A DNA stretch of 64,000 nt from Vicinamibacteria bacterium (GCA_965232015.1 OZ246946.1:3302612-3366611), one strand, 5' to 3'; counted from the stretch's first letter, positions 4,891 to 30,907 are shown. Notes: generated from the letters alone by a model not told the origin. Program-made: numbers and translations.

Positions 4891-6261
4891 TCAGCCGATG
4901 CGGGTGGACGATCCCAGCATCCATTGCCATGCCGGGCCGACCTCGACTGCAGGAGGTGGCTCGAACGGCAGCGGATCGGCCGTCAGCGTGAGCACGCGCC
5001 GCCTCGCCGTGGGGAACATCTCCTTCGCCTCGGCGAGAGCGGCGAACTCCCGCCGAGCCGTGTCCGGGTCGTGGAGTTCGGCGGCGACCTGGATCAGTTC
5101 CAGCGACCCGTTCGGGGCGCGCGCAAGGAAGTCCACTTCGCGGCGCCCCGGAGTGTGAACGTAGCTCGCATCAAGCCGGCGACGCTGCAACTCGACGAAG
5201 ACGGCCGTCTCCAGGAGACGTCCCCGGTTCTGTCGGCCGCGGCGCTCGAACACCGGAATCAACCCCGTGTCCGCCGGATACGCCTTGCGCGGGTTCATGG
5301 CTCTCTGCCGTTCCGAACCCGACGCCATCGAAACGAAGCCGCACAGGAAGCTGTCCTCGAGGTGGGACAGGAAGGCATGGATCGTGGCGCGGCTGACCCG
5401 GTAGCCCCGCGAACGGAGGGTGCGGTGGAATCGCTCGACGCTGAACAGCGCCGCCGGAGCGCTCAGGAGCTGGCGGACCAGAAAGGCCAGCGCGTCCGGG
5501 CTGCGCACCCGGTGACGCTCGATCACGTCCCGCAGCATGGCGATGTCCACATAAGCCCGGAGCAGCCAGTGCCGCCGGTCCACCGGGAGGCCCTGCGCTT
5601 CGGGGAAACCCCCGGTGACGAGCCAGCGGAGGAAGGCGCTCTCGGTCCGCGTTCTTCCCGATGGCGAGAGCCGTTCGATCTCGTCCGGGATCTCGAGCCC
5701 CTGGTGCGTGAGGAACTCGCCGAACGAAAAGGGATGGAGGGGAACCTCCCAGCCTCGACCCCGAAGGGAGGTCGCCACCTCGCGGGAGAGGAGCGCCGCC
5801 GAAGAACCGGAAACGACGACCTCGGTCAGCGGCGTGTCCAGGAGGCGCCGCACGAAGCGCTCCCAACCCGGCGCGAGATGGGCCTCGTCCAGATACCAGA
5901 CGACCGGGCCGCGGCCCCGCGCCGCCGGATGGAGCCGGTCGTACTCGTTCACGAGGAACCCGAGGGCCGTCCGATCGAGCCCCTCGAGGCGCTCGTCCTC
6001 GAAGCTCAAGAAGGGGACGTTCCCGGCCGGCAGCCCGGCAGCGACCCGTTCCCGACGCAATTGCTGCATGAGGGTCGTCTTTCCGACGCGCCGCATCCCC
6101 ACGATCGCGGTGGCCTTCCCCGGAAACCGGGGGTCGGTGGCGAGCTGACGGGGAGTGATCGGCTGCTCTGGGAGCTCGTGGGCGGACGCGATCTTTTCCT
6201 GAAGCGCCTGTCGAACCAGGTGCGCCGGAGCATCGGCGCGAGGGAAATCGCCCTTGACCAT
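4891..6261 (-). CDS. AAA+ ATPase, DUF4143 family (COG1373)
   Basis: 456 aa. Walker A GMRRVGKTTL, Walker B VWYLDEAH, and the C-terminal DUF4143-like region (REVDFLA...). This is one of three paralogs in the window. Confidence 0.8.
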   Translation of the reverse strand: MVKGDFPRADAPAHLVRQALQEKIASAHELPEQPITPRQLATDPRFPGKATAIVGMRRVGKTTLMQQLRRERVAAGLPAGNVPFLSFEDERLEGLDRTALGFLVNEYDRLHPAARGRGPVVWYLDEAHLAPGWERFVRRLLDTPLTEVVVSGSSAALLSREVATSLRGRGWEVPLHPFSFGEFLTHQGLEIPDEIERLSPSGRTRTESAFLRWLVTGGFPEAQGLPVDRRHWLLRAYVDIAMLRDVIERHRVRSPDALAFLVRQLLSAPAALFSVERFHRTLRSRGYRVSRATIHAFLSHLEDSFLCGFVSMASGSERQRAMNPRKAYPADTGLIPVFERRGRQNRGRLLETAVFVELQRRRLDASYVHTPGRREVDFLARAPNGSLELIQVAAELHDPDTARREFAALAEAKEMFPTARRRVLTLTADPLPFEPPPAVEVGPAWQWMLGSSTRIG

Positions 6262-6432: not shown

Positions 6433-6849
6433 TCAGCCCTCCTCTGCCGGCCTCCTGCGCGAACGCTTCACCAGCGATCGCCTTCGCTTCGCCTCCAGCC
6501 GAGCCCGTTTCCGCCCTCTGGGCACTCGCGTCGGGACGCGCTTCGGCTTCCTCGCGAAATGTCTCTCCAGTCGCTCCCGCAGTCTGGCCAGCGCGACCTG
6601 GCGGTTGCGGTACTGGCTACGCCGCTCGCGGGCAAGGACCACGATTCCCGTGGGAAGATGCGTCAGGCGGACCGCGCTGTCGGTCGTGTTCTGGTGCTGG
6701 CCGCCCTTGCCTCCGGCTCGGAAGGTGTCGACGCAGCACTCGCGCAGGAGCTCCGCGTCCGAAGCGGGAATGGAGGCGGTCATCAGCGGGCCCACAAGTG
6801 CTCGGGTGCCTTCCTGGCGGTCAGGCCCGAAGCAGAAAGCCCCAGACAT
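6433..6849 (-). CDS. arfB: Alternative ribosome-rescue factor ArfB (peptidyl-tRNA hydrolase, class I release-factor-like GGQ protein)
   Basis: 138 aa with '[26 protein letters not shown]' (GGQ motif) and a basic C-terminal tail, as in ArfB/YaeJ. Confidence 0.8.
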
Positions 6850-6868: not shown

Positions 6869-8029
6869 TTATCGCGGCACGTAATCTCCGGCCCACAGGC
6901 GGCGGGCGAACTCGGTCGCGGGCAGGATTTCGATCCCGTCGTCCGTCCTGAGCAGCCGCGATTCGAGGCAGACCACCAGGCGCCGATCCACTTCGGGATG
7001 GTCCCGCACCAGGGAGCGCAGGCCCTTCAGGTGGCGCGGCCGGATCGCCTTCGCGGACTTCGCCTCGATCGCGATGCGCATGTCGCCGACGATGAAGTCC
7101 ACTTCGGCGCCTCCGGCCAGCCGCCAGTACGACAACCGCTCCGCCGAGCCGGAATAGTCCAGCCATGCGACGAGCTCGTGGTGCACCCAGTTCTCGAACG
7201 CCTTGCCGAAGAGGTCCGACCCGGGCTGGAGCGGGCCACGGAGAGCGAGGCGGTTCACCACCCCCACGTCGCCGAAATAGAACCTGGGCGTTCGGACGGT
7301 TCGCCGTTTGGGCCGCTTCCTCCACGCCGGAAGCCAGCGGCCGAGGAGTGTGTCCACGAGCACGGCGTACCAGGCGCGCGCCGGCTGCCGGCTCACGCCG
7401 CAATCGCTCGCGACCCGCTGGAACCGCACCATTTCGGTATCGCAGATGGCCGCCGCTTCGAGGAAATGCGAGAAGGCCGCGAGGTTGCGGGCGGCGCCCT
7501 CGGCGGCGATCTCCTCTCGCAGGTAGTCCCCCACGTAGGCATCGAGCAGCTTCTTCGGCGTCGGATCGCGGTGGACTGCCGGCAGATAGCCCAGGTCCAG
7601 CACCCGGCCGAGATCGAAGTCCTCCCCGAACTCCGCGGACACGAGCCCGTGGAGCTGGTACCGGATCGCCCTCCCGCCCAGCAGGGTCGCGGCGCCGCGC
7701 CGGACTTTCCGCGCGCTGGAGGCGCAGAGGGCGAAGCGGAGGCCGAGGTTCTCGATCATCCAGTGGACCTCGTGGAGGAGATCCGGCACCCGCAGCACCT
7801 CGTCCACGACCACGAAACCCGGCGCATCCGGCCCGGCGGCCCGCAGCTCCTGCCGGAGCGCCTCTGGGCGGCGGGCGTAGCGGCGGAACTCGTCGGCGCG
7901 CAGCAGATCCACGAACCTCGCCTCCGGGTACCGCAAGCGGAGGTGCGTGCTCTTCCCCACCTGCCGGGGGCCCCACAGGAAGAAGCTCGCGCTCCCGGCC
8001 TCGGGAAGTTCGAGCCTGCGAGTGTACAT
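6869..8029 (-). CDS. AAA+ ATPase, DUF4143 family (COG1373)
   Basis: 386 aa. Walker [10 protein letters not shown], Walker B FVVVDEV, and the DUF4143-like C-terminus (AEVDFIV). Confidence 0.8.
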
Positions 8030-8139
8030 CGCTACTTCACATTAGCATGACAATGTCAGGCGAAAGCGTCGGATCCGGGCCCACAGCGCGACCGAGCGGT
8101 GCGGAGTGGGAGTCGGAGGAAGTGGCCCCTCCGGCGTCC

Positions 8140-8913
8140 CTCAGTTTTCCCGGCGGATCACGACCCCGGCGAGGGCGCCGGTGGGGGTCCCATCCTCCAC
8201 CGCGATCTCTCCGTTCACGAGCACCCAGGGGATGCCGACCGGGGGGGTCGCCGGTTCGAGGATCGTCGCCACGTCTTCGACGCGCTCGTAGTCGAACGCC
8301 ACGATGTCCGCCGCGCAGCCGACGCGCAGACACCCTCGGTCTTCGAGCCCGATGATGGCGGCGGGCAGGCTCGTCGAGGACCGCACCATGAACGGCAGGC
8401 TGATCACGCCGCGTTCCCGGGTGTAGTGGGCGATCTTGCGCGGGTAGCTGCCCCAGTAGCGGGGGTGGCGTCCGGGCGTTCCTTCGAGCGCGACGCCGGC
8501 GTCGGTGGCGGTCGCCGTGAAGTCCTGCTCCATGTAGTGCTCGACATCGAAGCGGTGTCCCGCCACCGGCCGGATGAGCACACCGTGGAGAAGCTCCTCC
8601 GAGCCGGCCCGGGCGAATGCGATCAGCGTCTCCGCCACCGACTGGTCCGCTTCCCGCGCGATCTCGGCGACGGTCTTCCCGACCAGCGCCGGATCCTCGG
8701 GGAAGAAGACGACGATCAGGCGGTCGGCGCCCCCGAACAGGTCGAGTTGCTGCTCCAGGTCCATCAGGAGGTCGCCGCGCGTCTCCGGATCGGCGAGGTT
8801 CGCCTCGAGGTTCTCGAGGGTCAGCAGACCCGACCTCCGCCAGTCGGGGTCGTCCAGTCCGCCCGATCGGTCCATGCCCCTCGGCGCGAAGCCCCAGATC
8901 GGGATCACGCCGA
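8140..8913. repeat. Direct repeat copy A (~775 bp), duplicated again at 12655-13436; flanks the IetAS-like insert
   Basis: By-eye comparison shows near-identity (a few SNPs). Homology breaks at 8913/13436 on one side and ~8140/12655 on the other. Confidence 0.8.
8141..8908 (-). pseudogene. Duplicated 3' fragment of the N-acyl-D-amino-acid deacylase gene (C-terminal ~255 codons only)
   Basis: The sequence is nearly identical at DNA level to 12658-13436. The encoded peptide is near-identical to the C-terminal 255 residues of the 570-aa deacylase. It lacks the N-terminal catalytic half. Confidence 0.7.
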
Positions 8914-8918
8914 CCGCA

Positions 8919-11504
8919 TTACAACACGCTCGCGCCGGTCTTCACACGAACAGCAATCCGCTCGCGGACTTCCTGATGGATCGGGATGCGAAGAAGCAGA
9001 TCCTTCGCAACCTCGAGGGTCACTGCCAAGCCGAACCGGACGGGCTGCACGATGTCACCGGCGTCCTTCCGACAATTGACCTTCACCGTCATCTCGTCAC
9101 CATCGTTGATCGGGATGGCACTCATGCCCTCGAACACCTCATGCTGAACCGTTCCCCGCTGTGCCGCGCGGAAGTCTGCACATGACCGATCACTCGCAAT
9201 GGGGCCGGGCGCGCCGAACCAAAGGTGAGCCACGCGGTAACCGCGCCGGCGACTGTTGATCGGAGAAAACCATGCCAGAGTGATGATCACGCGCCTCCTC
9301 GCCGCAGCACCGGACAGGCTCGGCGGCAGCGGCAGGGAAAACACGGCCGCCTCTCTGTCGTCCAGTGATCCGAAGCCCAGGACGGTCACACGCCGCTCCG
9401 CACCCTGGGCCACGCGCCCGAAGTCAGCGAGGCCATAGCCAAGAAATCGTGCGACATAGTCTCGGAAGGATCGCCCGCGGCCCGCTCTCAAGATGTCCCC
9501 GTAACGGTCGAACATCTCGTCCCATCGGGCCCCATGCACGAGCAGCGCCTTGATCAGCACCGCGTCGAAATCATCCGGGATCTCATGGCTGGAGCTCGCA
9601 CGGAGCGTCTCCAACAACTCGAAGAACACAGACGCCCCGCGGGATGCCAAGGCGGCGGCGTTGCTTGTTCCTCGTGTGTAGTGCGTAGCGTTCAGTACAC
9701 CCTGCGCGCCCGGTGTCGCCACGCGCTGGCCGGGAGCTCCATCCGAAGCATGCGGCCGAAGAACAATCCTTCCTGGCGGCGGCGCGAGCTGTTCGGACAT
9801 CATCTGCCTTCCACCGGGCAGCAGGATGTCAGGCTTGATCGCACGCCGATAGCCCGGACCGTGAGCGGAGATGACGCTCGGCAATCCGCTCGCTACCGGC
9901 TCGATGAGATGACTCGGACCGGGGCTGGATTGGTCCCCATGCACTGCGCCCACTGTCAGCCCGTTCAGCGTCTCCCCCGGGGACAGGAGGCGCCGGTGTC
10001 TCGTGTCCTTCGCAACGGCCATGATCACTTCCCGCTGGCGAGCGTCCTGGCCCAATCCATGAAGTCCCTTGGCGGGCTCCGGAAAGGAGATATTCCGAGA
10101 GTGGTTTCCGGCGCTAACGACGAATAGGACGCCATACTTCCATGCGAGCCAGTCGAGGAGGCGAGCCCACGCGCTCATGTCCGTAATGAATGGGCGAGCG
10201 GGGTCGCCGACTGACAGATTGACCACGCGGATCTCCGGCGAGGCCGCCGGTTCTCCACCCTCTCCGTCGAACAGCCGACGAACGGCACGGTGCAGTAGAT
10301 CCACGGGCAGCACGTCCTCCGGTACCGCTTCCACGAAGTTGTTGTCAAAACCGCGGCGCGGCTTCATGATCGGCCGCACGTAGATCTGTCGATCCAGCGG
10401 CGATTCCTGAGCATCCAGGTCGCCATGACACATCAACGACGCCATCGCCGTCCCGTGGCTCCTCTCCCGAGCCTGGTAGCTCCCTTCGTGGCCGTCCGGG
10501 TCGTCCACGACCAGACGCCCGTCCAGCAGGGTATGTTGCGTGAGGGGCAACCCATCGAGCAAGGCGACGACTGGGGCCCCTAGAGGTCGGTGCCTCGGTG
10601 CGCCCGGCAGCGCTGAGACGACGTCGTCGGCCTCGTCGGGAACGGGCGTGGCGCACTGACCAACCGGTCGCACGAACATGATGTCGTCACATCGGAACAG
10701 AGCCACTTCACGCCGCAATGCCGGCTCGTTGAGCAGTCCCTGAACTCGCGTGATGTCGATGCGGCCGAGCATGGCGTGATAGGCGATGTCTCGAATGGTG
10801 CACTCGGTGACGACCTCTCCGCCGACTTCATGCACGAGGTGGCGGAGCTGCTGGTGGGCGATGGAACGTCGTGACTCGGAGCCGCGATACCAGAGATCGG
10901 CTTCGAACGGAACCAGTTCCTGGCCGGCCGCCACCCGCTCACGCCAGTCCTCGAGGAGGCCCGTCTCAGCCAGCCTGTCCTCCACTCCCCATGGCCGGAT
11001 CTCACGCAGCGACTCGAACGCGTGTTTGAGAGGGGCCAAGCCATGGCTGAACGGAGCCTCAGGCTCGCGGCGCCACGAGTCGAAGAGGCGTCGCAGCTCT
11101 GCCAGAGCGCGCTGGTCGGACATGATCAGGAAGAGCTGCCCGCTCAGGCTCTTCTCGGGATCCTTGGGGTCCTCGAATCCATCCCCCGGTGCGATTTCCT
11201 CAACGCCGTACTCCGCGAGCCATTCGAGCCCTTCGATCCCCTCAACTGCCCGGATGAAGTTTTCCACGGTCCCGACTGTCTTGAGCACGAGCACCTGCTC
11301 AGGCTCGATGCCGAGCGAACTCCCCTGAAGCTCGGCCCGACGGTGCGCCAGTGCTTCCTGCAACCGCTGGAATTGGGGCGCCAGGCGTTCACCCTGCCGG
11401 CGGGCGCTCGGCCGCTTCAGCCGGCCGCCGCCACCGAATCTCCGCTCCCGTTCCGCGCGTCCCGGGGTAGGAAACAACAGGATCGGGTAGTCGCTGCCCG
11501 CCAT
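8919..11504 (-). CDS. S8 subtilisin-family serine peptidase, IetS-like
   Basis: S8 catalytic motifs are present: Asp (VVALLDGLP), His (SHGTAMASL) and Ser (GTSNAAALAS). The likely start is MAGSDYP... (ATG 11504), 2 nt after the stop of the upstream AAA gene. A longer ORF extends to 11555. Confidence 0.75.
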   Translation of the reverse strand: MAGSDYPILLFPTPGRAERERRFGGGGRLKRPSARRQGERLAPQFQRLQEALAHRRAELQGSSLGIEPEQVLVLKTVGTVENFIRAVEGIEGLEWLAEYGVEEIAPGDGFEDPKDPEKSLSGQLFLIMSDQRALAELRRLFDSWRREPEAPFSHGLAPLKHAFESLREIRPWGVEDRLAETGLLEDWRERVAAGQELVPFEADLWYRGSESRRSIAHQQLRHLVHEVGGEVVTECTIRDIAYHAMLGRIDITRVQGLLNEPALRREVALFRCDDIMFVRPVGQCATPVPDEADDVVSALPGAPRHRPLGAPVVALLDGLPLTQHTLLDGRLVVDDPDGHEGSYQARERSHGTAMASLMCHGDLDAQESPLDRQIYVRPIMKPRRGFDNNFVEAVPEDVLPVDLLHRAVRRLFDGEGGEPAASPEIRVVNLSVGDPARPFITDMSAWARLLDWLAWKYGVLFVVSAGNHSRNISFPEPAKGLHGLGQDARQREVIMAVAKDTRHRRLLSPGETLNGLTVGAVHGDQSSPGPSHLIEPVASGLPSVISAHGPGYRRAIKPDILLPGGRQMMSEQLAPPPGRIVLRPHASDGAPGQRVATPGAQGVLNATHYTRGTSNAAALASRGASVFFELLETLRASSSHEIPDDFDAVLIKALLVHGARWDEMFDRYGDILRAGRGRSFRDYVARFLGYGLADFGRVAQGAERRVTVLGFGSLDDREAAVFSLPLPPSLSGAAARRRVIITLAWFSPINSRRRGYRVAHLWFGAPGPIASDRSCADFRAAQRGTVQHEVFEGMSAIPINDGDEMTVKVNCRKDAGDIVQPVRFGLAVTLEVAKDLLLRIPIHQEVRERIAVRVKTGASVL

Positions 11505-11506
11505 GA

Positions 11507-12493
11507 TCAGGCCGTGCGGCCACTGGAGGCCACTCGTCCGAGCCGCGTCCTCCACTGCCGCAAACGACCGTCAACGATGTCCTTGGGTCGAGCATCCGCT
11601 CCTTCCAGAATCAACTGTCGCAGGGCATCGGTGCAGAAGTCTTCCACTTCCGCGAAACTCAGCCCGGCCAACTTGCGCGCCAAGTCCGTCGGCTGGATGC
11701 CGAACGATTGTCCGGTCCGTCGCTCGAAGCCACCGTACCACTCCTCGATCTGCTGCTGGGTCGGCGGGCCGAGTTCGAGTCGGATCTGAAATCGACGCCA
11801 AGCCGCTCGATCAAGCAGTTCTGCGTGGTTCGTGGCCGCCAGAACCACGACATAACTGGGGAGAGCATCGATTTGCAGTAGCAGGGAGCTCACAACGCGT
11901 TTGATTTCACCCGTTTCGTGCGTGTCCCCCCGTTCCTTGCCAACGACGTCGAACTCGTCAAAGAGCAAGAGACATCGCCTTGACCGAACATGCTCGAAGA
12001 CCTTGGCAATTCGTTGCGCCGTTTCACCCAGGTAGCTGCCAATGACTGCTTCGTATTGAACGACAAAGAGGGGCACACCCAAGGCGTCGGCCAGCGCCTC
12101 GGCGAGAGTCGTCTTGCCGTTCCCCGGCGGCCCCGCCAAGAGTATTCGATTGCGTGGTTCCAGGTTGTATGACCTGAGCAGGTCCGCTCTGTGGTGCTCC
12201 GAGATCAGTTCTCGTACTGTCTCTTTGGTTGGAGGCGCTAGTGTCAAGTCATCCAGTCGGCGACGTGGAGTCTTCTCGACTACCAGCGGCGTGGCAGCTC
12301 GTCCTGGCGCGGGAAGCGGACGTGGGCTGAGCCCATTCGCAGGCCGGAGCTGCGCGAGCAGGCGATCCGCGAGGATCGTGTGGTTCTTGGCGCGCTCGTT
12401 GGCGGCCAGCGCCTCGACCGTCTTCCGAACCTGTGCTCGGTCGCCGCGATGGCTCGCCCTGACGAGACTCAGGATGAGGTCAGCACGAGCCAT
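11507..12493 (-). CDS. AAA+ ATPase (single classic AAA module), IetA-like
   Basis: 328 aa. Walker A GPPGNGKTTLA, Walker B LLLFDEFD, and sensor/Arg-finger-like region (ATNHAELLDRAAWRRF). It forms an operon with the S8 peptidase. Confidence 0.8.
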   Translation of the reverse strand: MARADLILSLVRASHRGDRAQVRKTVEALAANERAKNHTILADRLLAQLRPANGLSPRPLPAPGRAATPLVVEKTPRRRLDDLTLAPPTKETVRELISEHHRADLLRSYNLEPRNRILLAGPPGNGKTTLAEALADALGVPLFVVQYEAVIGSYLGETAQRIAKVFEHVRSRRCLLLFDEFDVVGKERGDTHETGEIKRVVSSLLLQIDALPSYVVVLAATNHAELLDRAAWRRFQIRLELGPPTQQQIEEWYGGFERRTGQSFGIQPTDLARKLAGLSFAEVEDFCTDALRQLILEGADARPKDIVDGRLRQWRTRLGRVASSGRTA

Positions 12494-12654
12494 GGTCAGT
12501 GTGCCGTCTCCGAAGAAGCTCCCGATGCGGTCCGCGGCCCGGCTCGCCCCCCCGAGTGACCAGAGCGGTTGCGCCGACGGTCTGACATCCTCACCTCAAG
12601 GCTTCTCGGACTCTAGCCGAATCGCCAAACGTGGGGTGGCGGCCCGTCCGGAGG

Positions 12655-13436
12655 GCCTCAGTCTTCCCGGCGGATCACGACCCCGGCGAGAGCGCCGGTG
12701 GGGGTCCCATCCTCCACCGCGATCTCTCCGTTCACGAGCACCCAGGCGATGCCCACCGGGGGGGTCGCCGGTTCGAGGATCGTCGCCACGTCTTCGACGC
12801 GCTCGTAGTCGAACGCCACGATGTCCGCCGCGCAGCCGACGCGCAGACACCCTCGGTCTTCGAGCCCGATGATGGCGGCGGGCAGGCTCGTCGAGGACCG
12901 CACCATGAACGGCAGGCTGATCACGCCGCGTTCCCGGGTGTAGTGGGCGATCTTGCGCGGGTAGCTGCCCCAGTAGCGGGGGTGGCGTCCGGGCGTTCCT
13001 TCGAGCGCGACGCCGGCGTCGGTGGCGGTCGCCGTGAAGTCCTGCTCCATGTAGTGCTCGACATCGAAGCGGTGTCCCGCCACCGGCCGGATGAGCACAC
13101 CGTGGAGAAGCTCCGCCGAGCCGGCCCGGGCGAATGCGATCAGCGTCTCCGCCACCGACTGGTCCGCTTCCCGCGCGATCTCGGCGACGGTCTTCCCGAC
13201 CAGCGCCGGATCCTCGGGGAAGAAGACCACGATCAGCCGGTTCGCGCCGCCGAACAGGTCGAGCTGCTGCTCCAGGTCCATCAGGAGGTCGCGGCGCGTC
13301 TCCGGATCGGCGAGGTTCGCCTCGAGGTTCTCGAGGGTCAGCAGACCCGACCTCCGCCAGTCGGGGTCGTCCAGTCCGCCCGAGCGGTCCATGCCCCTCG
13401 GCGCGAAGCCCCAGATCGGGATCACGCCGACCGGGC
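12655..13436. repeat. Direct repeat copy B (within the intact deacylase gene)
   Basis: See copy A at 8140-8913. Confidence 0.8.
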
Positions 13437-14469: not shown

Positions 14470-17400
14470 ATGCGCGTCCGTTTCCGTCTCCTCCTCGCGG
14501 CAGCGGGACTGATCCTCCTGGCCGCGACCGCCGCCGCCCAGCCTCTGGACCCCGCACACCTCGGCGGGCTCCGCTGGAGGACGATCGGACCGGACGGGAA
14601 CCGCATCAGCGCCGCCGCCGGCGTCTGGGGGGACCCGGACATCCTCTTCTTCGGGGCGGCGTCGGGCGGTCTCTGGCGCAGCGACGACGCCGGCGTGACC
14701 TGGGCCCCGGTTTTCGACGAGCACGACGCCGCCTCGATCAGCGCGCTCGCGGTCTCGCCCTCCCATCCGGACCAGGTGTGGGCGGGCACCGGCGAGACCT
14801 TCATCATCCGTCCCGCGCTCGCGATGGGGAACGGGATCTACCGCTCCCTCGACGGGGGACGCAGCTTCCACCACCGGGGTCTGGAGGCGACCGGCCGGAT
14901 CGCCCGCATCCTGGTGGATCCACGGGATCCGGACCGGGTGTACGCCTGCGCGCTGGGGCACTCCTACGGGCCGCAGCCGGAGCGGGGCGTCTATCGGACC
15001 GACGACGGCGGCGCGAACTGGAGTCTGGTCCTCCATGTGGACGAGCACACCGGCTGCTCCGATCTCGCTCTCGACCTCGATCATCCCAACCGGCTTCTCG
15101 CCGGGATGTGGCAGCTCCGGATCGCCACCCACGGTCTCCGGAGCGGCGGTCCCGGAAGCGGCGTTTACCGGTCGAACGACGGCGGCGACACCTGGGAGCG
15201 GCTCTCCGGTCCGGTCAGCGCCGATGGCCCGAACGCGGGACGGGGGCTCCCCGGAGGCGAAGGGCATCCGGTAGGCAAGGTCGCGGTGGGGATCGCGCCG
15301 AGCGATCCGGACCGCTGGTACGCGCTCGTGGAGGACGAATCCCCCGGGTTCTATCGGTCCGACGACTCGGGTAACTCCTGGCGGCTGACCCTGACACACC
15401 ACGATCTCGCCGAGCGGGCGCCCTACTACGTCCGCTTCGCGGTGGACGCGACCGACGCCGACCGGATCTACTTCGCCTCGGTGCTGTTCGGAACTTCGGT
15501 GGACGGCGGCCTGAGCCTCCACGAGACGTCCTACCGGGCCGGGGGCGACAACCACGACGTGTGGGTGGACCCGTGGCTGCCCGGACGCATCCTCGTCGGC
15601 CACGACGGCGGGGGCAGCATCTCCATGAACCGCGGCGCGAGCTGGCGCCGGGTGGTGCCGCCGATCGCCCAGATGTACCACGTGACGGTGGACGACCGGA
15701 TCCCCTACCGGGTGTACGGAAACCGCCAGGACGGCTACTCCTACCGCGGCCCGAGCCGCACCGCGTCGGGCGGCATCCCGATCGGGCGGTGGCAGGGCGT
15801 CGGCGGCTGCGAGAGCGGCTGGGCCACGCCGGAGCCGGAGGACGACAACATCGTCTGGTCCGGCTGCTACGACGGCGGGCTCGAGGTGTACGACGACCGC
15901 ACCGGGCACGTGCGCGACGTCCGGGTCTGGCCCGAAGCCGCCTACGGCTGGGCGCCCGCCGATGTGAAGGTCCGCTGGCACTGGAACTTCCCCATGGTCC
16001 TCTCGCGCCACGAGCCGGGGACCACCTGGGTCGGCAGCCAGTTCGTGCACCGCAGCCGGAACCGGGGGCAGTCGTGGGAGGCGATCAGCCCCGATCTCAC
16101 GACGAACGACAAGGCGCGCCAGCAGGACTCCGGCGGCATCACGGTGGACAACCTCTACACCTTCGATGGCGCCGTCCTGTTCGCGCTCGCCGAGTCTCCC
16201 CTCGCCCCGGGTCAGCTCTGGGCGGGCAGCGTGGACGGCAGGCTCCACGTCACCACCGACGGGGGCGAGACCTGGCTGGACCGCAGCGACCAGGTGCCGG
16301 GGCTCGACGAGGAGGCCTGGATCAAGTCCATCGCTCCGTCGGCCCACGACACAGGCACCGCCTATCTGGCGGTGAGCTGGCACCAGTCGGGAGACTTTCG
16401 GCCCCACATCTACCGCACCCGCGACCTCGGCGAGAGCTGGGAGCGGATCAGCGCCGGCATCCCCGAATCTCCGTTCTCCTTCGTCCATGTGGTCCGGGAG
16501 GATCCGAAGCGCGCCGGGGTGCTGTTCGCCGGGACCGACAACCAGGTCTGGGGCAGCCTCGACGACGGAGCGAGCTGGTTCTCGCTGCGGCGCAACATGC
16601 CGCCGGCCCCGATCTACGACCTGGTGATCCAGGAGCGATTCGACGATCTGGTCGTCGCCACCTACGGCCGGGGGTTCTGGATCCTCGACGGGATCGGCCC
16701 GCTGCGCGATCTCGCGGCTTCCGGCTCCGGGCCGTTCCGCGTCTTCCCTTCCCCGACAGCCTGGCGATTCCTGCCCCGCCAGACGATCAAGACCGAGCCC
16801 GGCAGCCTCTCCACCGGACAGAACCCGCCCTACGGGGCCGCGATCTCGTGGTGGACCGACGCGGACGCCTCCGGTCCGGCGCGGATCACGATCACGAACT
16901 CCGAGGACGAGGTGATCCGGACGCTCCGCGCCCCGGCCGCAACCGGCCTCTCCCGGACCCACTGGGATCTGCGCCGCGACGGCCCGGCTCGGGCCACGCT
17001 CCGCACCCGGCCCCCGGATCGCGACTGGGTGGAGATGGGCGAGGACGGCTCACGAAGCATCCGAACCTGGGATCTGGACATCTTCCCCGGCTATCGGGGC
17101 GCGCTGGTCCCTCCGGGGACCTACACCGCCCGGGTGGAGATCGGGGACCGCGCGGCCGAGACCCCGATCGTGGTCGAGGCGGACCCGTCCTCCGCGGCGA
17201 CTCCGGCCGACGCCGCCGAGAAGTACGCTTTCCTCCGGGCGATCCACGCGCAGCTCGACGAGCTCGCCGACATGGTGGACGAGCTGGAGTTCGCGCGACG
17301 CGAGCTCGCCGCATTCGAGGAGTACGTGGGAGAGCGCCACGCCGGTGACGAGCGATTCACCGCGGTTCTCGAGAGCGCCGCCGAAGTCGCCGGCACCGCG

Positions 17401-17676
17401 CTCGCGATCGAGGGACGCCTGTTCGACACCGGTCTCACCGGCGCTCGCGAGGACGCGTTCCGCGCCCCCATCCGCCTGTTCGGACGGCTCGGAGCCCTCG
17501 CCAACGATGCGGGCCGGGATGGCGCCGACTTCGCCCCCACCGATCAGCAGCGGGAGGTCCGAGCGGTGCTGACCGGGCGGTTCGAAGAGGCGAGGGCGGC
17601 CTACCGGGATCTGGTCGGGACGCAGTTGCCCGCCCTCTGGCGCGCCATCGGGGAGGCGCGCGCCGGAGAGCGGTAG
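14470..17676 (+). CDS. Secreted BNR/Asp-box repeat (sortilin/Vps10-like) beta-propeller protein
   Basis: 1068 aa with a signal peptide. Repeated S-x-D-x-G-x-T-W motifs (SDDAGVTW, TDDGGANW, SNDGGDTW, SDDSGNSW, TTDGGETW, LDDGASWF). Confidence 0.8.
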   Translation: MRVRFRLLLAAAGLILLAATAAAQPLDPAHLGGLRWRTIGPDGNRISAAAGVWGDPDILFFGAASGGLWRSDDAGVTWAPVFDEHDAASISALAVSPSHPDQVWAGTGETFIIRPALAMGNGIYRSLDGGRSFHHRGLEATGRIARILVDPRDPDRVYACALGHSYGPQPERGVYRTDDGGANWSLVLHVDEHTGCSDLALDLDHPNRLLAGMWQLRIATHGLRSGGPGSGVYRSNDGGDTWERLSGPVSADGPNAGRGLPGGEGHPVGKVAVGIAPSDPDRWYALVEDESPGFYRSDDSGNSWRLTLTHHDLAERAPYYVRFAVDATDADRIYFASVLFGTSVDGGLSLHETSYRAGGDNHDVWVDPWLPGRILVGHDGGGSISMNRGASWRRVVPPIAQMYHVTVDDRIPYRVYGNRQDGYSYRGPSRTASGGIPIGRWQGVGGCESGWATPEPEDDNIVWSGCYDGGLEVYDDRTGHVRDVRVWPEAAYGWAPADVKVRWHWNFPMVLSRHEPGTTWVGSQFVHRSRNRGQSWEAISPDLTTNDKARQQDSGGITVDNLYTFDGAVLFALAESPLAPGQLWAGSVDGRLHVTTDGGETWLDRSDQVPGLDEEAWIKSIAPSAHDTGTAYLAVSWHQSGDFRPHIYRTRDLGESWERISAGIPESPFSFVHVVREDPKRAGVLFAGTDNQVWGSLDDGASWFSLRRNMPPAPIYDLVIQERFDDLVVATYGRGFWILDGIGPLRDLAASGSGPFRVFPSPTAWRFLPRQTIKTEPGSLSTGQNPPYGAAISWWTDADASGPARITITNSEDEVIRTLRAPAATGLSRTHWDLRRDGPARATLRTRPPDRDWVEMGEDGSRSIRTWDLDIFPGYRGALVPPGTYTARVEIGDRAAETPIVVEADPSSAATPADAAEKYAFLRAIHAQLDELADMVDELEFARRELAAFEEYVGERHAGDERFTAVLESAAEVAGTALAIEGRLFDTGLTGAREDAFRAPIRLFGRLGALANDAGRDGADFAPTDQQREVRAVLTGRFEEARAAYRDLVGTQLPALWRAIGEARAGER

Positions 17677-17687
17677 GAGCGATCCCG

Positions 17688-19409
17688 ATGGGCGCGGAGT
17701 TCCGGCGCTTCGGCCTGGGGAACCTCCTCGCCCTCGGCCTGCTCGCCGGATGGACCTTCGTCGTGGCCGCCTACGGTCCCGATCCCGGATTCCCGGGACG
17801 GGCGCTCGGAGAGCTCGCGGCCGGACTCGGTCGGACCGCGCTGTGGTTCGTTCCGGTGGGGGTTCTCGTCCCGCTGGCGCTGCCGCGCATGCGGGGGCTG
17901 TTCTCCACCCTCTTCGTGATCCTGATTCCTTCGGTGGTCCTGGCCGCCGCGATCACGGTGCTCGCCGTGGCCGCCCCCGATGAAGCGCCGTGGGCCCTCT
18001 TCGAATCGTTCCAGCTTCCCCCAGTGCTCGACCTCCTCGCTCCGGCGGCGGGCGCCTTCGCCGGAGTCCTCCTCGGGACCGTCCTGGCCCGGGGGTTCGG
18101 AGCCGCGCTGTTGCTGATCCCGGCGCTTCTCGGGATCGGCGCGGTTCTGCTCGCGATCGTCGCCGTCGCGCTGCTCGTCCTCACCGACCGGGTCGCGGCC
18201 GTGGAGCCGGTGGGAGTTCCCGCGCCGACCGCGGCGGACTACCACGCCGCCTTCTCCACCGACCCGGGAGGACGCGCGGGGGAGTCGCGGCTCGCGCTGT
18301 CGCCCGATGCGTTCGCGTCCGCCCTGCGGCTCGCGGTGGCGGCCGGCGGTCTGGCGCCCGGGACGCGGATCGCTTTCGCCGCCGAGGGGGACGAGCTCCG
18401 CGGCGGTTTTTCGCTCCCGTGGACGATTCCCTGGGTCGGGGAGCGGTTCGTCAACGTGGGCGCGGTCGCCCGACCCTCGTTCGAGGACGGGGCGTTCCGC
18501 GCCCGGGTGCGGTCGTTCTCGATTGGCGACCTGACGATCCCGCCGGGGATGGTGCGGCCCGCCTCCCGGATCGTGTCACGCTGGCTGCGGCAGGGGTCGC
18601 CGCTCGCCCCGGTGCTCGACGAGATGCAGCGGGCGGGAGCGGAGCTGGCGGTCGAGGAGTCGGCGCTCGTGGTGCGACGGCCCGCCTCCGCAACGCCGAG
18701 CGGCCCGGTGGGGGACTATGTCGCCCGCCTGGAGCGGGACGCTGGCCGGATTCGCGCCCGCCCGGACCGGTTGGTGGGCGCGCTCGAGACCGTGTTCGGG
18801 CTCGCCGCCGAGCGTTCGGTGAGCGTCGCCGCGATCCCGCACAATCGGGCGGCGATCCTCGCGCTCGGGGGCGCGGCGGGCCACCCGGCGCTGCTGTCCC
18901 TCGCCGGGTTCCCCGAGGCGGCGGGCGCCGCGCGCGGCCTGTCCGAACGGATGGGGCTCACTCTGGGGGGCCGCCGGGACTGGGCGCGGCACTTCCTGCT
19001 CAGCGCCGGACTGAGCCAGATCGGCCCCGACGGCCTGTCCGAACGCGCCGGACTGATCAAGGAGCGACTCGACGCCGCGAGCGGCGGCACCGGCTTCTCG
19101 TTCGCCGATCTCCTCATGGACGCGGCCGGGCGTCGCTTCGCCGCCGCCGCGACCGCGACCGAGCCCTCCGCGAGGGGAATCCAGGCCGCCGTTCTCGCCG
19201 GCGTCGTGGAGGACGACCTCGCACCCGGCAATACCGGCCTGCCGGAAGGTCTGTCGTCCGAGAGGCTGGAGGCGGAACTCGGCGGGTTCGACGGCGAGGC
19301 GTTCCTCGCGCTCGAAGCCGAGATCACCGGACGGCTCGATGCGCTCCCGCTCTACCGCGCCACGCCGAGCCGGGACGCCGTCCCGCCGCCCACTCTCGAG
19401 GACGGCTGA
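17688..19409 (+). CDS. Hypothetical membrane protein
   Basis: 573 aa. It starts 12 nt after the previous gene and has several N-terminal hydrophobic helices with GC3-rich codon usage. There is no recognisable domain. Competing antisense ORFs were judged spurious. Confidence 0.5.
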   Translation: MGAEFRRFGLGNLLALGLLAGWTFVVAAYGPDPGFPGRALGELAAGLGRTALWFVPVGVLVPLALPRMRGLFSTLFVILIPSVVLAAAITVLAVAAPDEAPWALFESFQLPPVLDLLAPAAGAFAGVLLGTVLARGFGAALLLIPALLGIGAVLLAIVAVALLVLTDRVAAVEPVGVPAPTAADYHAAFSTDPGGRAGESRLALSPDAFASALRLAVAAGGLAPGTRIAFAAEGDELRGGFSLPWTIPWVGERFVNVGAVARPSFEDGAFRARVRSFSIGDLTIPPGMVRPASRIVSRWLRQGSPLAPVLDEMQRAGAELAVEESALVVRRPASATPSGPVGDYVARLERDAGRIRARPDRLVGALETVFGLAAERSVSVAAIPHNRAAILALGGAAGHPALLSLAGFPEAAGAARGLSERMGLTLGGRRDWARHFLLSAGLSQIGPDGLSERAGLIKERLDAASGGTGFSFADLLMDAAGRRFAAAATATEPSARGIQAAVLAGVVEDDLAPGNTGLPEGLSSERLEAELGGFDGEAFLALEAEITGRLDALPLYRATPSRDAVPPPTLEDG

Positions 19410-19506
19410 GCGGGCCGCGCCGTTCGGCGCCCCCGGGAGGCATACTTCGGCTCGCTGGGCGCGCCCGCTCCGAGCTGGCGATGCCGGAGTGCGCCAGGGA
19501 GGGATC

Positions 19507-21933
19507 ATGCCGAACCTAAGCGGACGACCGAGAACTCCGGATCCCGGGTCCGGACGACATGGCCCGGAACACCTCGTCCGCGGCCTCGTCGCGCTGGGGG
19601 CAGCGGTCGTGCTGGCGGGATCGGCCTGCACCGCGCGTTCGGGGGCCACGAGTCCCACGCCTCGAGCCACCCCGCCGACCCCGGCTCCGACGCCCCCGCC
19701 CGAGCCCGAGCCGCCTCCGCCGCCGCGGGAGGTCGAGCCGCCTCCCGCCGATGTCTGCATCCCGACCCGCGACGGGTCCTGCCTGCCCGGTCCGGAGTTC
19801 CACGCGCAGGCCGAGGCGCTCGCCACCGACCACCTCGCCGACCCCGCCTTCGGCGCCCAGTGGGGACTCGAGTCCATCAACGCCCACCGCGCCTACGCGC
19901 ACGTGGATCTCCTCGAGGGCGAGGGCGTCGCCCCGGGTGAAGGCGTCACGCTCGGCTTCATTGACACCGGGATCGATCACGACCACCCGTCACTGGCCGG
20001 CAAGTGGATCCACGAGGTGCTCCTCCCCGGAGCGGAGGACGAGACCGGAGAGGACTACTCGCACGGCACGATGGTGGCCGGCGTCGCGGCCGGCGTCCCG
20101 ACGGGCAACAGCGGCTTCTCGCACGGGGTCGCGTGGGGCGCCGACATCGCCATGTGGGCCATCCCGCTCGGCTCGGGCGACGGGATCTACGACCCGCTTC
20201 CGGTGGACATCCTGGGCCTTGTGGACGGAGAGGACGCGGACCAGTTCCAGGCCGTCTTCGACTGGCGTGACGGAGAGCGGCGAGTGGACATCCTGAATCT
20301 CAGCTTCGGCTACCAGGGCATCATCGAGACCTACTCGGAGGAGGATCTCCGCACCTACTACTCGCAGACGCTCGAAGTGCTCGCCCAGGAGGGCGTCGCC
20401 GACCCGGTGCTCCTCGTCTGGGCGGCAGGCAACTCGAACGGCGACCGGTGCGGCTTCGGCACCGAGGGCTGCGAGGACGGGCGCTTCCAGGCGACTTCGG
20501 TGAGCCTCCTGCCCGGGCTCATGACCCGCATCGAGGAACTCCAGCCCCACTCGGTCGCGGTCGTCGCGCTCGGTCCGGATGGGGGCGCGATCGCCGAGTT
20601 CTCGAACCGCTGCGGCGTCGCCGCAGCGTTCTGCATCGCCGCGCCCGGTGAAGAGATCCGGGTCGCCTACTTCGGTCCAGACGAAGAGGATGTCGTCGTG
20701 AGGGGCGCCGTGGACGCCAACGGCACCTCGTTCGCCGCCCCGATGGTGAGCGGCGGGCTCGCGGTGATGAAGCAACTCTTCCGCGACCAGCTCTCGAATG
20801 TCGAGCTGCTGGACCGGCTGTTCCGAACCGCCGACGACACCGGCATCTACGCCGACCGCGAGATCTACGGCCGCGGCCGGATGGACCTCGGCGCCGCCAC
20901 CTCGCCGGTCGGTGTTCTCGACGTTCCCATCGGCGCGCACGGCGCCATGGTTGCGGCCTCGCTCGACTCCACGCAGCTCCGCATGGGGTCGGCGTTCGGT
21001 TCCGGGATCGGGGAGGCGCTCGCCGGGCGCGAGCTCATGGCGCTCGACGACTTCGGTGCCCCGTTCTGGTACAGCCTCGGGAGCTTCGCGGTCTCCACCG
21101 ATGGTCCCTCGCTCGCCCGGCGGCTCCGCACCTTCCTCCGGCCATCGCCGGGCGAAGACGGCGCGGGCGGTTGGACGCTCGCTTCGGCGACCGGTTCCTC
21201 CCGCATCGAGGGCGCGGCGCGGGGCCCCGGGTTCGGAGGCGCGACCGGCCACCTGTCGCTCGCCGAAGGAGCGCTCCTGCTCCCGGCCGGTTCCGGGGAC
21301 GGCTTCACCGCCGCCGCGTTCACCACCGGGCTCTCGCGTCCACAGCATCCGGCCGCCGGCGGGTCGCTGCGTTGGGCGCCGGGACGTCTCCCGGTAGGGC
21401 TCAGCGCCGGATGGATCCGGGAGCCGGAATCGCTCCTCGGCAGCGTCGGCCAGGGCGCCTTCGGGCAGCTCGCGGCCAGCACCGCATTCGGCGGGCTCGA
21501 CGGCGGCGTGACGGTCGGCCGCTGGAGCCTCGGCGCCCGGGGCGAGGTCGGCGTCGTGCGGCCGGAGGCGTGGGGCGGCGTCCTCCAGGACCTGTCGCTC
21601 CTCACGACCAGCACCTTCGAGCTCCACGCCGATGCGGCGTTCGGGGACGGCGGCGGCCTTCGTTTCTCGCTGTCGCAGCCGCTCCGGGTGGACCGGGGGC
21701 GGGCGTCGCTCCTCGTGCCGTCCGAGCGAACCCGTGACGGGGCGATCCGGCATCAGGCGATTGCGGCCGATCTCGCGCCGAACGGCCGCCAGCTCGACGC
21801 GGCGGCGGCCTGGCGCCGCCCGCTGGGGCTCGGCGAACTGCGGATCGGGGCGGTCTGGACCCGCTGGCCCGGGCATCAGGACCTGCCGGGCCACGGCCTG
21901 ACCCTCCTCTCCGGGTGGCGCTGGACGTTCTGA
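19507..21933 (+). CDS. S8 subtilase lipoprotein with Pro/Thr-rich linker and C-terminal autotransporter-like beta-domain
   Basis: Lipobox (VVLAGSAC). S8 motifs are present: Asp (GFIDTGIDHDHP), His (SHGTMVAG) and Ser (GTSFAAPMVSG). The C-terminus ends ...LLSGWRWTF. The start is chosen at MPNLSG; the ORF extends upstream to 19339. Confidence 0.75.
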   Translation: MPNLSGRPRTPDPGSGRHGPEHLVRGLVALGAAVVLAGSACTARSGATSPTPRATPPTPAPTPPPEPEPPPPPREVEPPPADVCIPTRDGSCLPGPEFHAQAEALATDHLADPAFGAQWGLESINAHRAYAHVDLLEGEGVAPGEGVTLGFIDTGIDHDHPSLAGKWIHEVLLPGAEDETGEDYSHGTMVAGVAAGVPTGNSGFSHGVAWGADIAMWAIPLGSGDGIYDPLPVDILGLVDGEDADQFQAVFDWRDGERRVDILNLSFGYQGIIETYSEEDLRTYYSQTLEVLAQEGVADPVLLVWAAGNSNGDRCGFGTEGCEDGRFQATSVSLLPGLMTRIEELQPHSVAVVALGPDGGAIAEFSNRCGVAAAFCIAAPGEEIRVAYFGPDEEDVVVRGAVDANGTSFAAPMVSGGLAVMKQLFRDQLSNVELLDRLFRTADDTGIYADREIYGRGRMDLGAATSPVGVLDVPIGAHGAMVAASLDSTQLRMGSAFGSGIGEALAGRELMALDDFGAPFWYSLGSFAVSTDGPSLARRLRTFLRPSPGEDGAGGWTLASATGSSRIEGAARGPGFGGATGHLSLAEGALLLPAGSGDGFTAAAFTTGLSRPQHPAAGGSLRWAPGRLPVGLSAGWIREPESLLGSVGQGAFGQLAASTAFGGLDGGVTVGRWSLGARGEVGVVRPEAWGGVLQDLSLLTTSTFELHADAAFGDGGGLRFSLSQPLRVDRGRASLLVPSERTRDGAIRHQAIAADLAPNGRQLDAAAAWRRPLGLGELRIGAVWTRWPGHQDLPGHGLTLLSGWRWTF

Positions 21934-23740: not shown

Positions 23741-25110
23741 TCAGCGTGGGAGGGAGGCGAGGATGGCGGGGAGCCGCTCCACCAGGTAAAGCGGCAGCGA
23801 GAGGAGCCGGTAGCTGACTTCCGAGCGGCGGCCGTTTTCGCGCACGACGGTCCCGACCTCCTGGACCGAGGGCGGCGCCGCGTCGAACCGGACCGCGACC
23901 GGCGCTCTCTTCCGAGCCATGAACTGGTGGAGCGACTTCAGGCTGCCGCTCGCTCCGGCCTTGACTTCCACCGGAACGATGCGTCCGCCGAGAGCCACCA
24001 CGAAGTCCACTTCGGCGTTCGCCGAGCGCCGCTCGCGGAGCCAGTAGGTCAGCTCCCGATTCGCCGCGCCGGCAAGGAGCTCCTGCAGGTGCTGCCCGAT
24101 GAACTGCTCGGCCATCGCGCCCTCGTTGACCAGCCGGATCGAATCGAGCGCCCCGATGGACCTCCAGTCGAGGCCGCAGACCGCGTTCATCAACCCCACA
24201 TCGAGGAACAGGAGCTTGTACACCTTCGCGTCGGCCTCGGCCTGGAGCGGCAGCCCGCCACAGGCGCTGTGGGTGACTCGCAGCAGCACTCGCGCCAGGC
24301 ACAGCCGCGCGATGTCTTCCCGGATCGTCGCCGCCCGCACATCGCGAGCGAAGTGCACGTACTTGACTTTCCTGCCGGTGTAGCGGGCGGCGAGATTGAA
24401 GACCTGGACGATCCGCGCGAGGCTGCGCGAGCCGACGTAGCGCGGGAGGTCCTCCCGATAGGTTTCGATGATGGAGTGATGGACCTCGCTGGCCTCCCGC
24501 AGCCGACCCGACCTCGCGAAGGCCGCCACCGCTTCGGGCATGCCGCCGATGAACAGGTAGGTGCGAAGCCGTTCGAGGAGGCGGTTGTGGAGCGCCGGAT
24601 CCAGTCCGCGACCGATCTCGAACGTGGAGATCAGCTCGGCCAGCCGCTCTTCGCCGGCGCCCCGCAGGAACTCGGTGAAGGTCATGGGTCCCATATGGAG
24701 ATACGCCACCCGGCCCACGGGCATCCCCAGCCGATGCTCGGCGAGGGCGAAGTCCAGCAGGGAGCCTGCCGCCAGCACGGGGAGATCGCCGCGGTCTTCC
24801 CGCAGATAGCGGAGGGCTGGCAGGGCCTCCGGCACCGCCTGGATCTCGTCGAGGAACAGAAGCGAGCGCCGGCCGATCGGCCGGACGCCGGGCAAGGCTT
24901 CAAGGGTCCGGAGGAGGTGGGCTGGATCGTTCCGGGCGAAGGCGGGGCCGAGGTCGGGGTGCCGTTCGAGGTTGATCTCCGTCAGGGGCCGTTCCCACCG
25001 CTCGGCGAAGAGCCGCACCAGCGTGGACTTCCCGACCTGCCGGGCGCCTCTCAGGATGAGGGGCTTCCGGTCGGGGCGGTCCAGCCACGACCGAAGGGGG
25101 GTGAAGTGAC
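23741..25110 (-). CDS. AAA+ ATPase, DUF4143 family (COG1373), third paralog
   Basis: Walker A GARQVGKSTLV, Walker B LLFLDEIQ, and a DUF4143-like C-terminus (AEVDFVV). The start is proposed at TTG 25110 (..LFRRHFTPL..). The ORF extends to 25645 through low-complexity Arg/Pro sequence. Confidence 0.7.
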
Positions 25111-25255
25111 GACGGAACAATGAGACCTCTGGAGGGTGTCGCGGGGAGGCGTGGCGCCTGGTGTTCGGAACACACCTCTGTTTCAGCGACGAGTATGATA
25201 AAACAGAGATCTGTTTCGCCACTTCATCCGACGCGCCCGACTCTGTTGGCTGCAC

Positions 25256-25285
25256 ATGGAGCGTCCGACTCCGCCGGTTCTCCCG
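25256..25285 (+). promoter_or_regulatory. Second copy of the 30-nt motif GGAGCG(T)CCGACTCCGCCGGTTCTCCCGGT, ~150 nt upstream of mbfA
   Basis: It matches 28 of 30 positions of the motif at 329-358. It lies in the divergent intergenic region between the AAA gene (-) and mbfA (+). Confidence 0.35.
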
Positions 25286-25437
25286 GTAGGGGCCCGGCAC
25301 GGGTCGTCCCCTGCCGGCGCTGGGGCGCGATTCGTCGCGACCTTCCCGGGAGAAGGGTCGAGAGCTGCGCTCTGGGCGAGAGCGCTCCATGAAAGGGTGC
25401 CGGCATCTGGCTGCGTGCGGCACAATCCTCATGCCCC

Positions 25438-28354: not shown

Positions 28355-28429
28355 GCCTAATCGGCTTGCTGGAATCGGTGGTCGGCATCGCCGGAATGGG
28401 CAGCTGGCCGCTGTTCCCGCTGCCTTGGC

Positions 28430-30252: not shown

Positions 30253-30282
30253 GGTGGAGGCTACGCCAAGTACGGCGGCAGC

Positions 30283-30788: not shown

Positions 30789-30907
30789 GAGTCGATTGTA
30801 TGGCCATACCGTCTCGCATCCGTCTCGACCGGAATGCCGAGGCTCCCGGTCGGGAGTCCCGTGAGGTGTGCGCCGACCGCCTCTGCCCGCTATGCTTTGC
30901 GCTTGAA

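Follow-up and report, generated by a model that had tools for sequence, protein, structure and literature searches.

Gao et al. (2020) reportedly presented the ATPase-protease pair IetAS as a system of defence against phages. According to two later accounts (PMC8562856, PMC13069673), the first description, as far as they relate it, goes back to Yamamoto et al. (2009), who described a toxin-antitoxin pair that stabilises plasmid pTiC58. In this pair, IetS is the toxin and IetA the antitoxin; the protease activity is needed for defence, attempts to obtain constructs mutated in IetA failed, and how the pair acts against phages has yet to be established (PMC13069673; PMC8562856). The IetAS of Bacillus cereus acts by abortive infection, with YosG of SPbeta as the trigger protein (bioRxiv 10.1101/2022.08.27.505566). 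That an ATPase/S8 module also works off plasmids is shown by the TA132/133 pair of Mycoplasma (PMC8562856). Here, we analysed a stretch of 64,000 nucleotides (nt) from a Vicinamibacteria bacterium (GCA_965232015.1 OZ246946.1:3302612-3366611), hereafter the window, in which the genes of an IetA and an IetS are bracketed by an amidohydrolase gene and a truncated copy of the 3' end of that gene. It is quite likely, in our view, that this is an ordinary IetAS module that entered once in an ancestor, together with the duplication, and was then inherited vertically while the two copies were homogenised, a Campbell-type origin being the most economical.

Both proteins match the PADLOC models of the system over practically their full length. 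Residues 1-320 of IetA align to positions 1-322 of the 330 positions of PDLC04232 (7e-141), and residues 22-873 of the 878-aa open reading frame (ORF) containing IetS align to positions 3-850 of the 855 positions of PDLC04233 (1029.8 bits). Pfam recognises AAA in IetA (6.6e-30) and Peptidase_S8 in IetS (7e-18). The best named matches in NCBIfam are IteA for the former (218.6 bits, for a cut-off of 510) and IteS for the latter (71.2 bits, for a cut-off of 900). As these equivalog scores are far under their cut-offs, the pair belongs to a divergent IetAS subfamily, to which the function is extrapolated. The Walker A motif GPPGNGKT (residues 121-128), the pore loop SYLGE (153-157) and the Walker B motif DEFD (179-182) of IetA are invariant in five homologues, and Asp317, His350, Asn467 and Ser614 of IetS are invariant across 120 homologues.

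With regard to structure, IetA is a single-module AAA+ ATPase of the classic clade, and its closest relatives in the PDB are Rix7, p97, Cdc48, NSF and AFG2 (E-values of about 1e-38 to 1e-41), which are substrate-threading unfoldases. No sequence relative of IetS was found in the PDB. The AlphaFold2 model of IetS (predicted local distance difference test, pLDDT, of 69; predicted template modelling score, pTM, of 0.76) exhibits a poorly ordered N-terminus (residues 1-120), an alpha/beta region (about 124-280), the S8 domain (about 305-640) and a C-terminal beta-sandwich (about 700-850). The best Foldseek matches of this model are KP-43, PCSK9, furin and site-1 protease, all of them subtilases with a C-terminal beta-sandwich domain. 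Full-length relatives (34-41% identity, 95-99% coverage) adjoin ATPase genes on plasmids of Rhizobium, Agrobacterium, Sinorhizobium and actinobacteria, which fits the first description of the family as a toxin-antitoxin pair for Ti-plasmid stabilisation. The same-strand gene pair with the ATPase first is observed in the window and in the homologous loci L001, L081-L083 and L162. Based on these features, we regard the pair as a bona fide, divergent IetAS module, and thus a known kind of system.

The amidohydrolase gene, the cassette and the gene fragment are all on the minus strand in the ORF map of the window. The intact amidohydrolase gene (14370 to 12658) encodes 570 aa with a signal-peptide-like N-terminus, and its 3' 776 nt belong to repeat copy B (12641-13433), which extends 17 nt beyond the stop codon. 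The protein is D-aminoacylase-like (Pfam Amidohydro_3, 5.8e-17), its sole subfamily match in NCBIfam being PRK09061, under the cut-off; its G+C content at third codon positions (GC3) is 0.91, and orthologues with 78-91% aa identity are present in metagenome-assembled genomes (MAGs) of Acidobacteriota. The stop codon of this gene is separated from the start of IetA by 164 non-coding nt. In the spacer (12494-12640), the part from 12618 to 12494 is conserved among IetAS cassettes, and the 22 nt from 12640 to 12619 lie outside this conserved part. IetA (12493 to 11507, 328 aa) ends with the stop codon TGA at 11509-11507 and, after a gap of two nucleotides (TC, 11506-11505), IetS runs from its ATG at 11504 to 8919 (861 aa, stop codon TAA at 8921-8919). 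A filler of two nucleotides (TG, 8917-8918) then leads from the IetS stop to the start of the fragment and constitutes a diagnostic junction. Repeat copy A (8124-8916) comprises the truncated 3' fragment and 17 nt past its stop codon. Its coding part (8916 to 8141) amounts to 258 codons with no stop or frameshift, in which Pfam recognises only the C-terminal part of Amidohydro_3. The next gene, 111 nt after the end of the fragment, encodes an ATPase with AAA_14 and DUF4143 domains in Pfam (8029 to 6869, minus strand; PADLOC candidate PDC-S01).

In an ungapped local alignment, the two copies of the direct repeat (8124-8916 and 12641-13433) are 97.9% identical over 793 nt, with 17 mismatches. 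The coding share (8141-8916 and 12658-13433) accounts for 776 nt and 13 differences (98.3% identity), and the outer 17 nt past the stop codon for the other four, 13 of these 17 positions being identical. Between the copies are 3,724 nt (8917-12640), which encode only IetA and IetS. We found no inverted repeats flanking this segment, no integrase, excisionase, transposase or recombinase between the repeats (ORFs, Pfam and PADLOC), and no tRNA gene or Rfam family in the 64-kb window. All the features that an initial annotation of this locus had described are thus present, with slightly refined coordinates: the IetA/IetS-like pair, both members of which the PADLOC run matched over their full length; the intact ATPase and S8 motifs with the gap of 2 nt, IetS having 861 aa; the flanking duplication, given there as about 775 bp and now measured at 793 nt; one intact deacylase gene (570 aa) next to a truncated copy (258 codons); and the junction, placed near 8913-8919 and now assigned to the dinucleotide at 8917-8918. 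Its remark that the duplication is unlike a transposase target-site duplication also holds, the locus having no transposase, integrase, tRNA gene or inverted repeat. The statement that the cassette is inserted into the deacylase gene was loosely worded: the duplication does bracket the cassette, which is located between a deacylase gene that has stayed intact and the DUF4143 ATPase gene.

The cassette is compositionally foreign. Its G+C content is 0.58-0.66, compared to about 0.70 in the surroundings, and GC3 is 0.68 in IetA and 0.75 in IetS, compared to 0.84-0.92 in native genes. Homology between cassettes in different contexts extends from about 118 nt 5' of the IetA start (12618) to the IetS stop, and no further. 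Both the composition and this cross-context homology speak for a foreign origin of the cassette, and the homology defines a compact unit from the leader to the IetS stop. The leader of about 118 nt is common to cassettes in unrelated contexts, and its motifs (12608-12618; L001, L082 and L083) are GGCTAGAGTCC, CCTTGAGG..GATGT and, at the start, GACTGAC[C/G]ATGGCT. Consensus scans for promoters and terminators were uninformative. The leader presumably comprises the promoter and 5' untranslated region of IetA, the promoter role being conjectural because no match to the sigma-70 consensus is found in the leader.

The junction between IetS and the fragment is present in three lineages, represented by four assemblies: the window, L161, and a sister species (L001 and L162). 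L161 originates from the Logan assembly of run ERR3887488 and is 93.4% identical to the window at the nucleotide level over the cassette. Its junction, ...GTGTTGtaa TG CGG..., is identical to that of the window, and the contig ends after a further 127 nt, all of them belonging to an intact fragment sequence. L001 is a GenBank MAG contig, and L162 is a 10.1-kb ENA metagenome scaffold from a separate assembly, 99.96% identical to L001. In L001, the IetS stop is followed by 2 nt (TC) and then by a stretch of about 160 nt, whose alignment with the amidohydrolase gene begins exactly where copy A of the window begins (CGGTC...); the remainder of the fragment is gone. The local alignment score of this remnant is 66-79, compared to a mean of 23-25 for shuffled sequences (standard deviation of 2.7). 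It contains indels and is about 63-66% identical to the genes of the clade, compared to 53-60% for more distant orthologues. L162 exhibits the same remnant and junction. That the junction is shared indicates that it was formed once and that the ancestor from which these lineages descend already had both the cassette and the duplication.

The phylogeny of IetS, a neighbour-joining tree of 47 homologues with 100 bootstraps, is in line with this. The IetS of the window and that of L001 are exclusive sisters in 100 of the 100 bootstraps. The next closest IetS (70-73% identity; L081-L083) are found in type I restriction-modification islands, beside a DDE transposase and beside an M24 peptidase. Around these three cassettes we found only short chance repeats instead of flanking duplications, so the insertion of IetAS does not in general entail a duplication. 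A replacement of the cassette between the window and L001 was considered and rejected, as four-point and neighbour-joining analyses place the two as sisters. Between the window and L001, the number of synonymous substitutions per synonymous site (dS, Nei-Gojobori method) amounts to 1.25 in IetA and 0.93 in IetS, compared to 0.42-0.65 in the flanking genes. Taken together, these comparisons indicate that the cassette and the duplication entered once, in a common ancestor, and not recently.

If the duplication is that old, the near-identity of its copies has to be accounted for. The dS between copy A and copy B is only 0.041, whereas the dS to the L001 orthologue is 0.58 for copy A and 0.54 for copy B, and copy A clusters with copy B and not with the L001 remnant. 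Since the duplication cannot be younger than the split between the two species and yet exhibits this low dS, the copies would have been homogenised long after the split. This implies that gene conversion, imported allelic recombination or both keep the copies alike, as judged from the substitution pattern. Eight of the 13 coding differences are synonymous and five non-synonymous, for an expected synonymous fraction of 0.26 (P=0.007 against neutrality). Five of the 13 are clustered within 22 nt (8711-8732; P=0.0018, permutation), where copy B has the state of L001 and copy A that of more distant relatives. With nine aligned orthologues as outgroups, copy A exhibits no copy-specific non-synonymous change: its state at the five non-synonymous sites is that of nine of the nine orthologues at three sites, of seven at 8725, and of two (L001 and L006) at 8146. 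These differences look like allelic variation carried by recombination rather than pseudogene decay. The lower identity of the outer 17 nt is expected if conversion tracts seldom reach the edge of the repeat. Copy A is presumed to be non-functional and to be kept close to copy B by recombination. A functional truncated paralogue was rejected, since copy A is devoid of the N-terminal metal-binding half and has been lost in the sister species; selection alone on copy A is likewise insufficient to explain a dS of 0.04.

One genome per species was scanned for the amidohydrolase. Each of the 80 loci found belongs to a MAG of marine Acidobacteriota or Gemmatimonadota, and those nearest to the window are labelled Acidobacteria, Vicinamibacteria or 'Candidatus Marinacidobacterium'. 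In L005, L008 and L084, the slot is empty and the amidohydrolase gene is directly followed by the DUF4143 ATPase gene, with gaps of about 140-370 nt; empty-slot relatives of the kind that the initial annotation had proposed to look for therefore exist. Other relatives exhibit a TonB-dependent receptor with a Dcm methylase and Vsr (L002), a PIN-like gene (L016, with homologous ORFs in L012 and L007) or a PP2C phosphatase (L004). The slot is thus variable among relatives, which suggests that it is a recombination or insertion hotspot. Among the species representatives, only the closest, L001, has IetA and IetS in the slot. Its proteins are 86-91% identical to those of the window for the flanking genes, 80% for IetA and 67% for IetS. 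Exact look-ups of the amidohydrolase and IetS proteins of the window returned no contig. In metagenomes scanned with the amidohydrolase, the nearest matches were at 79-82%, none of them being another allele occupied by IetAS, and a scan of viral contigs with IetS gave no match.

Based on these observations, the following history can be proposed. The stem lineage of a small clade of Acidobacteriota, marine and probably associated with sponges, would have acquired the foreign cassette a single time, in the variable slot between the amidohydrolase gene and the DUF4143 ATPase gene. This event would also have duplicated the terminal 793 nt or so of the amidohydrolase locus, the second copy coming to lie immediately behind the IetS stop, as the shared junction shows. 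From then on, the locus would have been passed down vertically; most of the additional fragment would have been deleted in the sister species, and its remainder would have decayed to about 65% identity. In the window genome, the dS values and the pattern of differences suggest that the copies were repeatedly homogenised, so that they are now 2% apart. As the founding event, we rank first a single, Campbell-type crossover, in which the incoming DNA would have been a circle with the 3' end of the amidohydrolase gene, the leader, IetA and IetS. This model predicts exactly the order observed, namely the 5' part of the gene, repeat, leader, IetA, IetS, repeat and original downstream DNA. Alternatively, break repair or template switching may have coupled the insertion with the duplication. 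When the 17 differences were polarised with the nine outgroups, no clean switch point between donor and recipient was apparent; the signal of the crossover was probably erased by later conversion.

The initial annotation had implied a different history, in which the insertion is recent, either captured by homologous recombination or landed in an earlier tandem duplication, and in which the single-nucleotide polymorphisms (SNPs) between the copies, of which we count 17, would date the event. The identity of 97.9% between the copies, the atypical composition of the cassette and the empty sites of several relatives would all fit such a recent arrival. It is nevertheless difficult to reconcile with a junction that recurs in three lineages, with the decayed remnant in the sister species, and with sister IetS proteins (100/100) whose dS of 0.93 equals or exceeds that of the flanks. 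The annotation itself had held that the pair, conserved in synteny beside this deacylase gene in distant relatives and without a duplication, would speak against a recent insertion. This objection largely applies: the pair occupies the same slot, with the identical junction, in L001/L162 and L161, the sister species being not duplication-free, as it retains the remnant of about 160 nt. Dating by SNPs fails as well: homogenisation means that the SNP count cannot date the insertion, and the 2% divergence would reflect the last homogenisation. A tandem duplication as landing pad demands an insertion exactly at the duplication joint, for which we found no support. We therefore regard a recent insertion as highly unlikely. 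An assembly artefact, that is, a strain-mixture chimera giving a false duplication in a MAG, is the least credible explanation of all. The source is evidently a MAG, and repeats of about 0.8 kb can be misassembled from short reads; on the other hand, the source contig measures 3.88 Mb and the copies differ at 17 positions. An artefact is excluded because the other assemblies (L161, L001 and L162) carry the same junction between IetS and the fragment.

Two further explanations attribute the repeats to mobility. Phages and integrative and conjugative elements (ICEs) use att sites in tRNA genes or protein genes, and a site-specific element of this type, targeting the amidohydrolase gene and carrying a replacement 3' end, would formally give the attL/attR layout observed, where one repeat restores the gene and the displaced 3' end lies downstream. 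The insert of 3.7 kb consists only of IetA and IetS, however, with no integrase, excisionase, transposase, tRNA gene or inverted repeat; there is no short target duplication, a 793-nt 'att' is far beyond known core sites, and related cassettes are found in unrelated, repeat-free sites. Such an element is very improbable. In the case of recurrent mobility, the fragment and IetAS would form a circle free of any recombinase, which loops out via the repeats and re-enters the amidohydrolase gene of related cells by a single crossover. The lineages would then share the junction because it is part of the element, and copies this similar would point to a re-integration that was recent and came from a close strain. 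The locus has precisely the architecture of a Campbell-type product, copy A is undecayed, and the differences between the copies, mostly synonymous and clustered, resemble allelic variation of functional genes, all of which would be consistent with this explanation. In contrast, the metagenome and genome scans gave no empty allele of the same species and no closer copy, and the cassette was absent from the viral contigs scanned. Furthermore, the divergence of the cassette tracks or exceeds that of the host, the IetS tree mirrors the host relationship, and other IetAS loci have no flanking duplication. We thus consider recurrent mobility unlikely. Its more specific form, a cassette moved by RecA, whose one-repeat circle loops out and re-enters the amidohydrolase gene of related genomes, is somewhat more doubtful still. 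In that form, addiction to IetS/IetA would penalise the loss of the cassette, and gene conversion would keep the repeats proficient for recombination. If it were true, defence genes would move within a species by host homologous recombination alone.

Several points weigh against the explanation that we prefer. The defence role of this subfamily is deduced from homology, while the IteA and IteS models score far below their cut-offs. The L161 contig stops 127 nt into the fragment, and the resident amidohydrolase gene is out of sight in that lineage. The dS of the cassette is about twice that of the flanks, which could correspond to a deeper coalescence or an allelic replacement rather than strict vertical descent, although weaker codon bias or constraint in the lower-GC3 cassette could also cause it. 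The Campbell-type origin is deduced from the architecture, and no microhomology is visible at the junctions. Finally, the case for gene conversion is built on 13-17 differences, and copy A may instead have been re-created recently, for example, by excision and re-integration or by the acquisition of the entire locus from a closely related strain.

With regard to function, homology within the family and the conserved motifs make the following mechanism the most likely one at this locus. IetA, as a hexameric unfoldase, would hold the large intracellular protease IetS inactive in an ATP-dependent manner. A phage protein would upset this control, and the freed IetS would cut cellular targets, leading to growth arrest and abortive infection. 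The pair would also act as an addiction (toxin-antitoxin) module. This could bear on the persistence of the cassette, since direct repeats of 793 nt and 98% identity should delete it by RecA-dependent recombination. Its retention across speciation despite the repeats suggests that the cassette is kept by selection, either through the benefit of defence or through addiction to IetS/IetA, that is, post-segregational killing by IetS. In the sister species, the loss of most of the repeat may have locked the cassette in.

The neighbourhood of the cassette exhibits several other features. Three AAA_14 + DUF4143 ATPases of the PDC-S01 type are encoded in the 64 kb, all on the minus strand: at 4891-6261, at 6869-8029, and at 23741-25645, the third (PDC-S01, 4e-144) having an N-terminal extension of about 180 aa. 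The first two are conserved in the sister species. We rejected the neighbouring DUF4143 ATPases as members of the system, because they occur in relatives without IetAS. Between the first two is the gene of a 138-aa RF-1-domain protein (6433-6849, minus strand) with an ArfB/PrfH-like peptidyl-tRNA hydrolase domain, for which all NCBIfam matches are under the cut-off; this arrangement is kept in L001 and L162. Directly 5' of the start of the second ATPase gene (8030-8060), there is a conserved motif, TCATGCTAATGTGA / ACATGATAATNTGA, also observed in L001, L005, L008 and L084, which is likely a promoter or an operator. On the other side, divergent from the amidohydrolase gene, a gene conserved in relatives (14470-17676, plus strand) encodes a 1068-aa protein. 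It contains four copies of a 36-nt repeat family encoding [YW]R[ST][DN]D[AGS]G.{3}W, which is BNR/Asp-box-like. A second, unrelated S8 subtilase of 864 aa (19339-21933, plus strand) has native composition (GC3 of 0.88) and is not an IetS, as the PADLOC IetS models reach only 8e-6 with it. A second patch of low G+C content (0.565-0.64, compared to about 0.70) spans 28000-33000. At 28430-30145 (minus strand) is the gene of a 571-aa ABC-type ATPase (AAA_21/AAA_15) of atypical codon composition (GC3 of 0.69), which gave only partial PADLOC matches (AriA/AriAB, mad3, PtuA and GajA; best 7.8e-18) and is possibly another acquired defence-type gene, although a partner gene was not identified.

From an evolutionary point of view, the locus illustrates how far SNP counts between flanking repeats can underestimate the age of an insertion if these repeats undergo concerted evolution. 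It also illustrates that a defence cassette can outlast a speciation event between long direct repeats, which is compatible with selection for addiction or defence. Neither point will surprise specialists.

The organisation of the locus can be compared with two well-known situations. Concerted evolution by gene conversion is known in bacteria, for example, for tuf or rRNA paralogues. As in these cases, the copies in the window are closer to each other than to the orthologue, the duplication predates speciation, and the edge of the repeat is more diverged. The difference is that one partner is a non-functional fragment here, so that homogenisation would be a by-product and not selected. Campbell-type single-crossover integration is obtained with suicide plasmids or circularised DNA. 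In its products, as in the window, direct repeats bracket the insert, one repeat completing the gene and the other being truncated and joined to the original downstream DNA. In contrast to such products, the locus is devoid of any vector or replicon remnant; it also goes back to an ancient event, after which the two repeats underwent concerted evolution.

Among the ATPase-protease systems, ietHAS (PMC13069673) has the IetA/IetS core, a protease required for defence and an antitoxin-like IetA, but it includes an additional SNF2 helicase, and no helicase gene adjoins the cassette of the window. The Mycoplasma TA132/133 pair (PMC8562856), likened here by its description, is also a chromosomal toxin-antitoxin pair of an AAA-ATPase and a subtilisin-like protease, yet it belongs to another phylum with much smaller genomes. 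The closest resemblance is to IetAS itself, with which the locus shares the order of ATPase then subtilase, the 2-nt gap, the full-length PADLOC matches and the intact motifs, as well as full-length homologues beside ATPase genes on Rhizobium and Agrobacterium plasmids. The copy in the window differs in being chromosomal, in coming from an uncultivated member of the Acidobacteriota, and in being only 34-41% identical to the plasmid members. It would thus extend IetAS, a little-studied defence and toxin-antitoxin family, to uncultivated marine Acidobacteriota.

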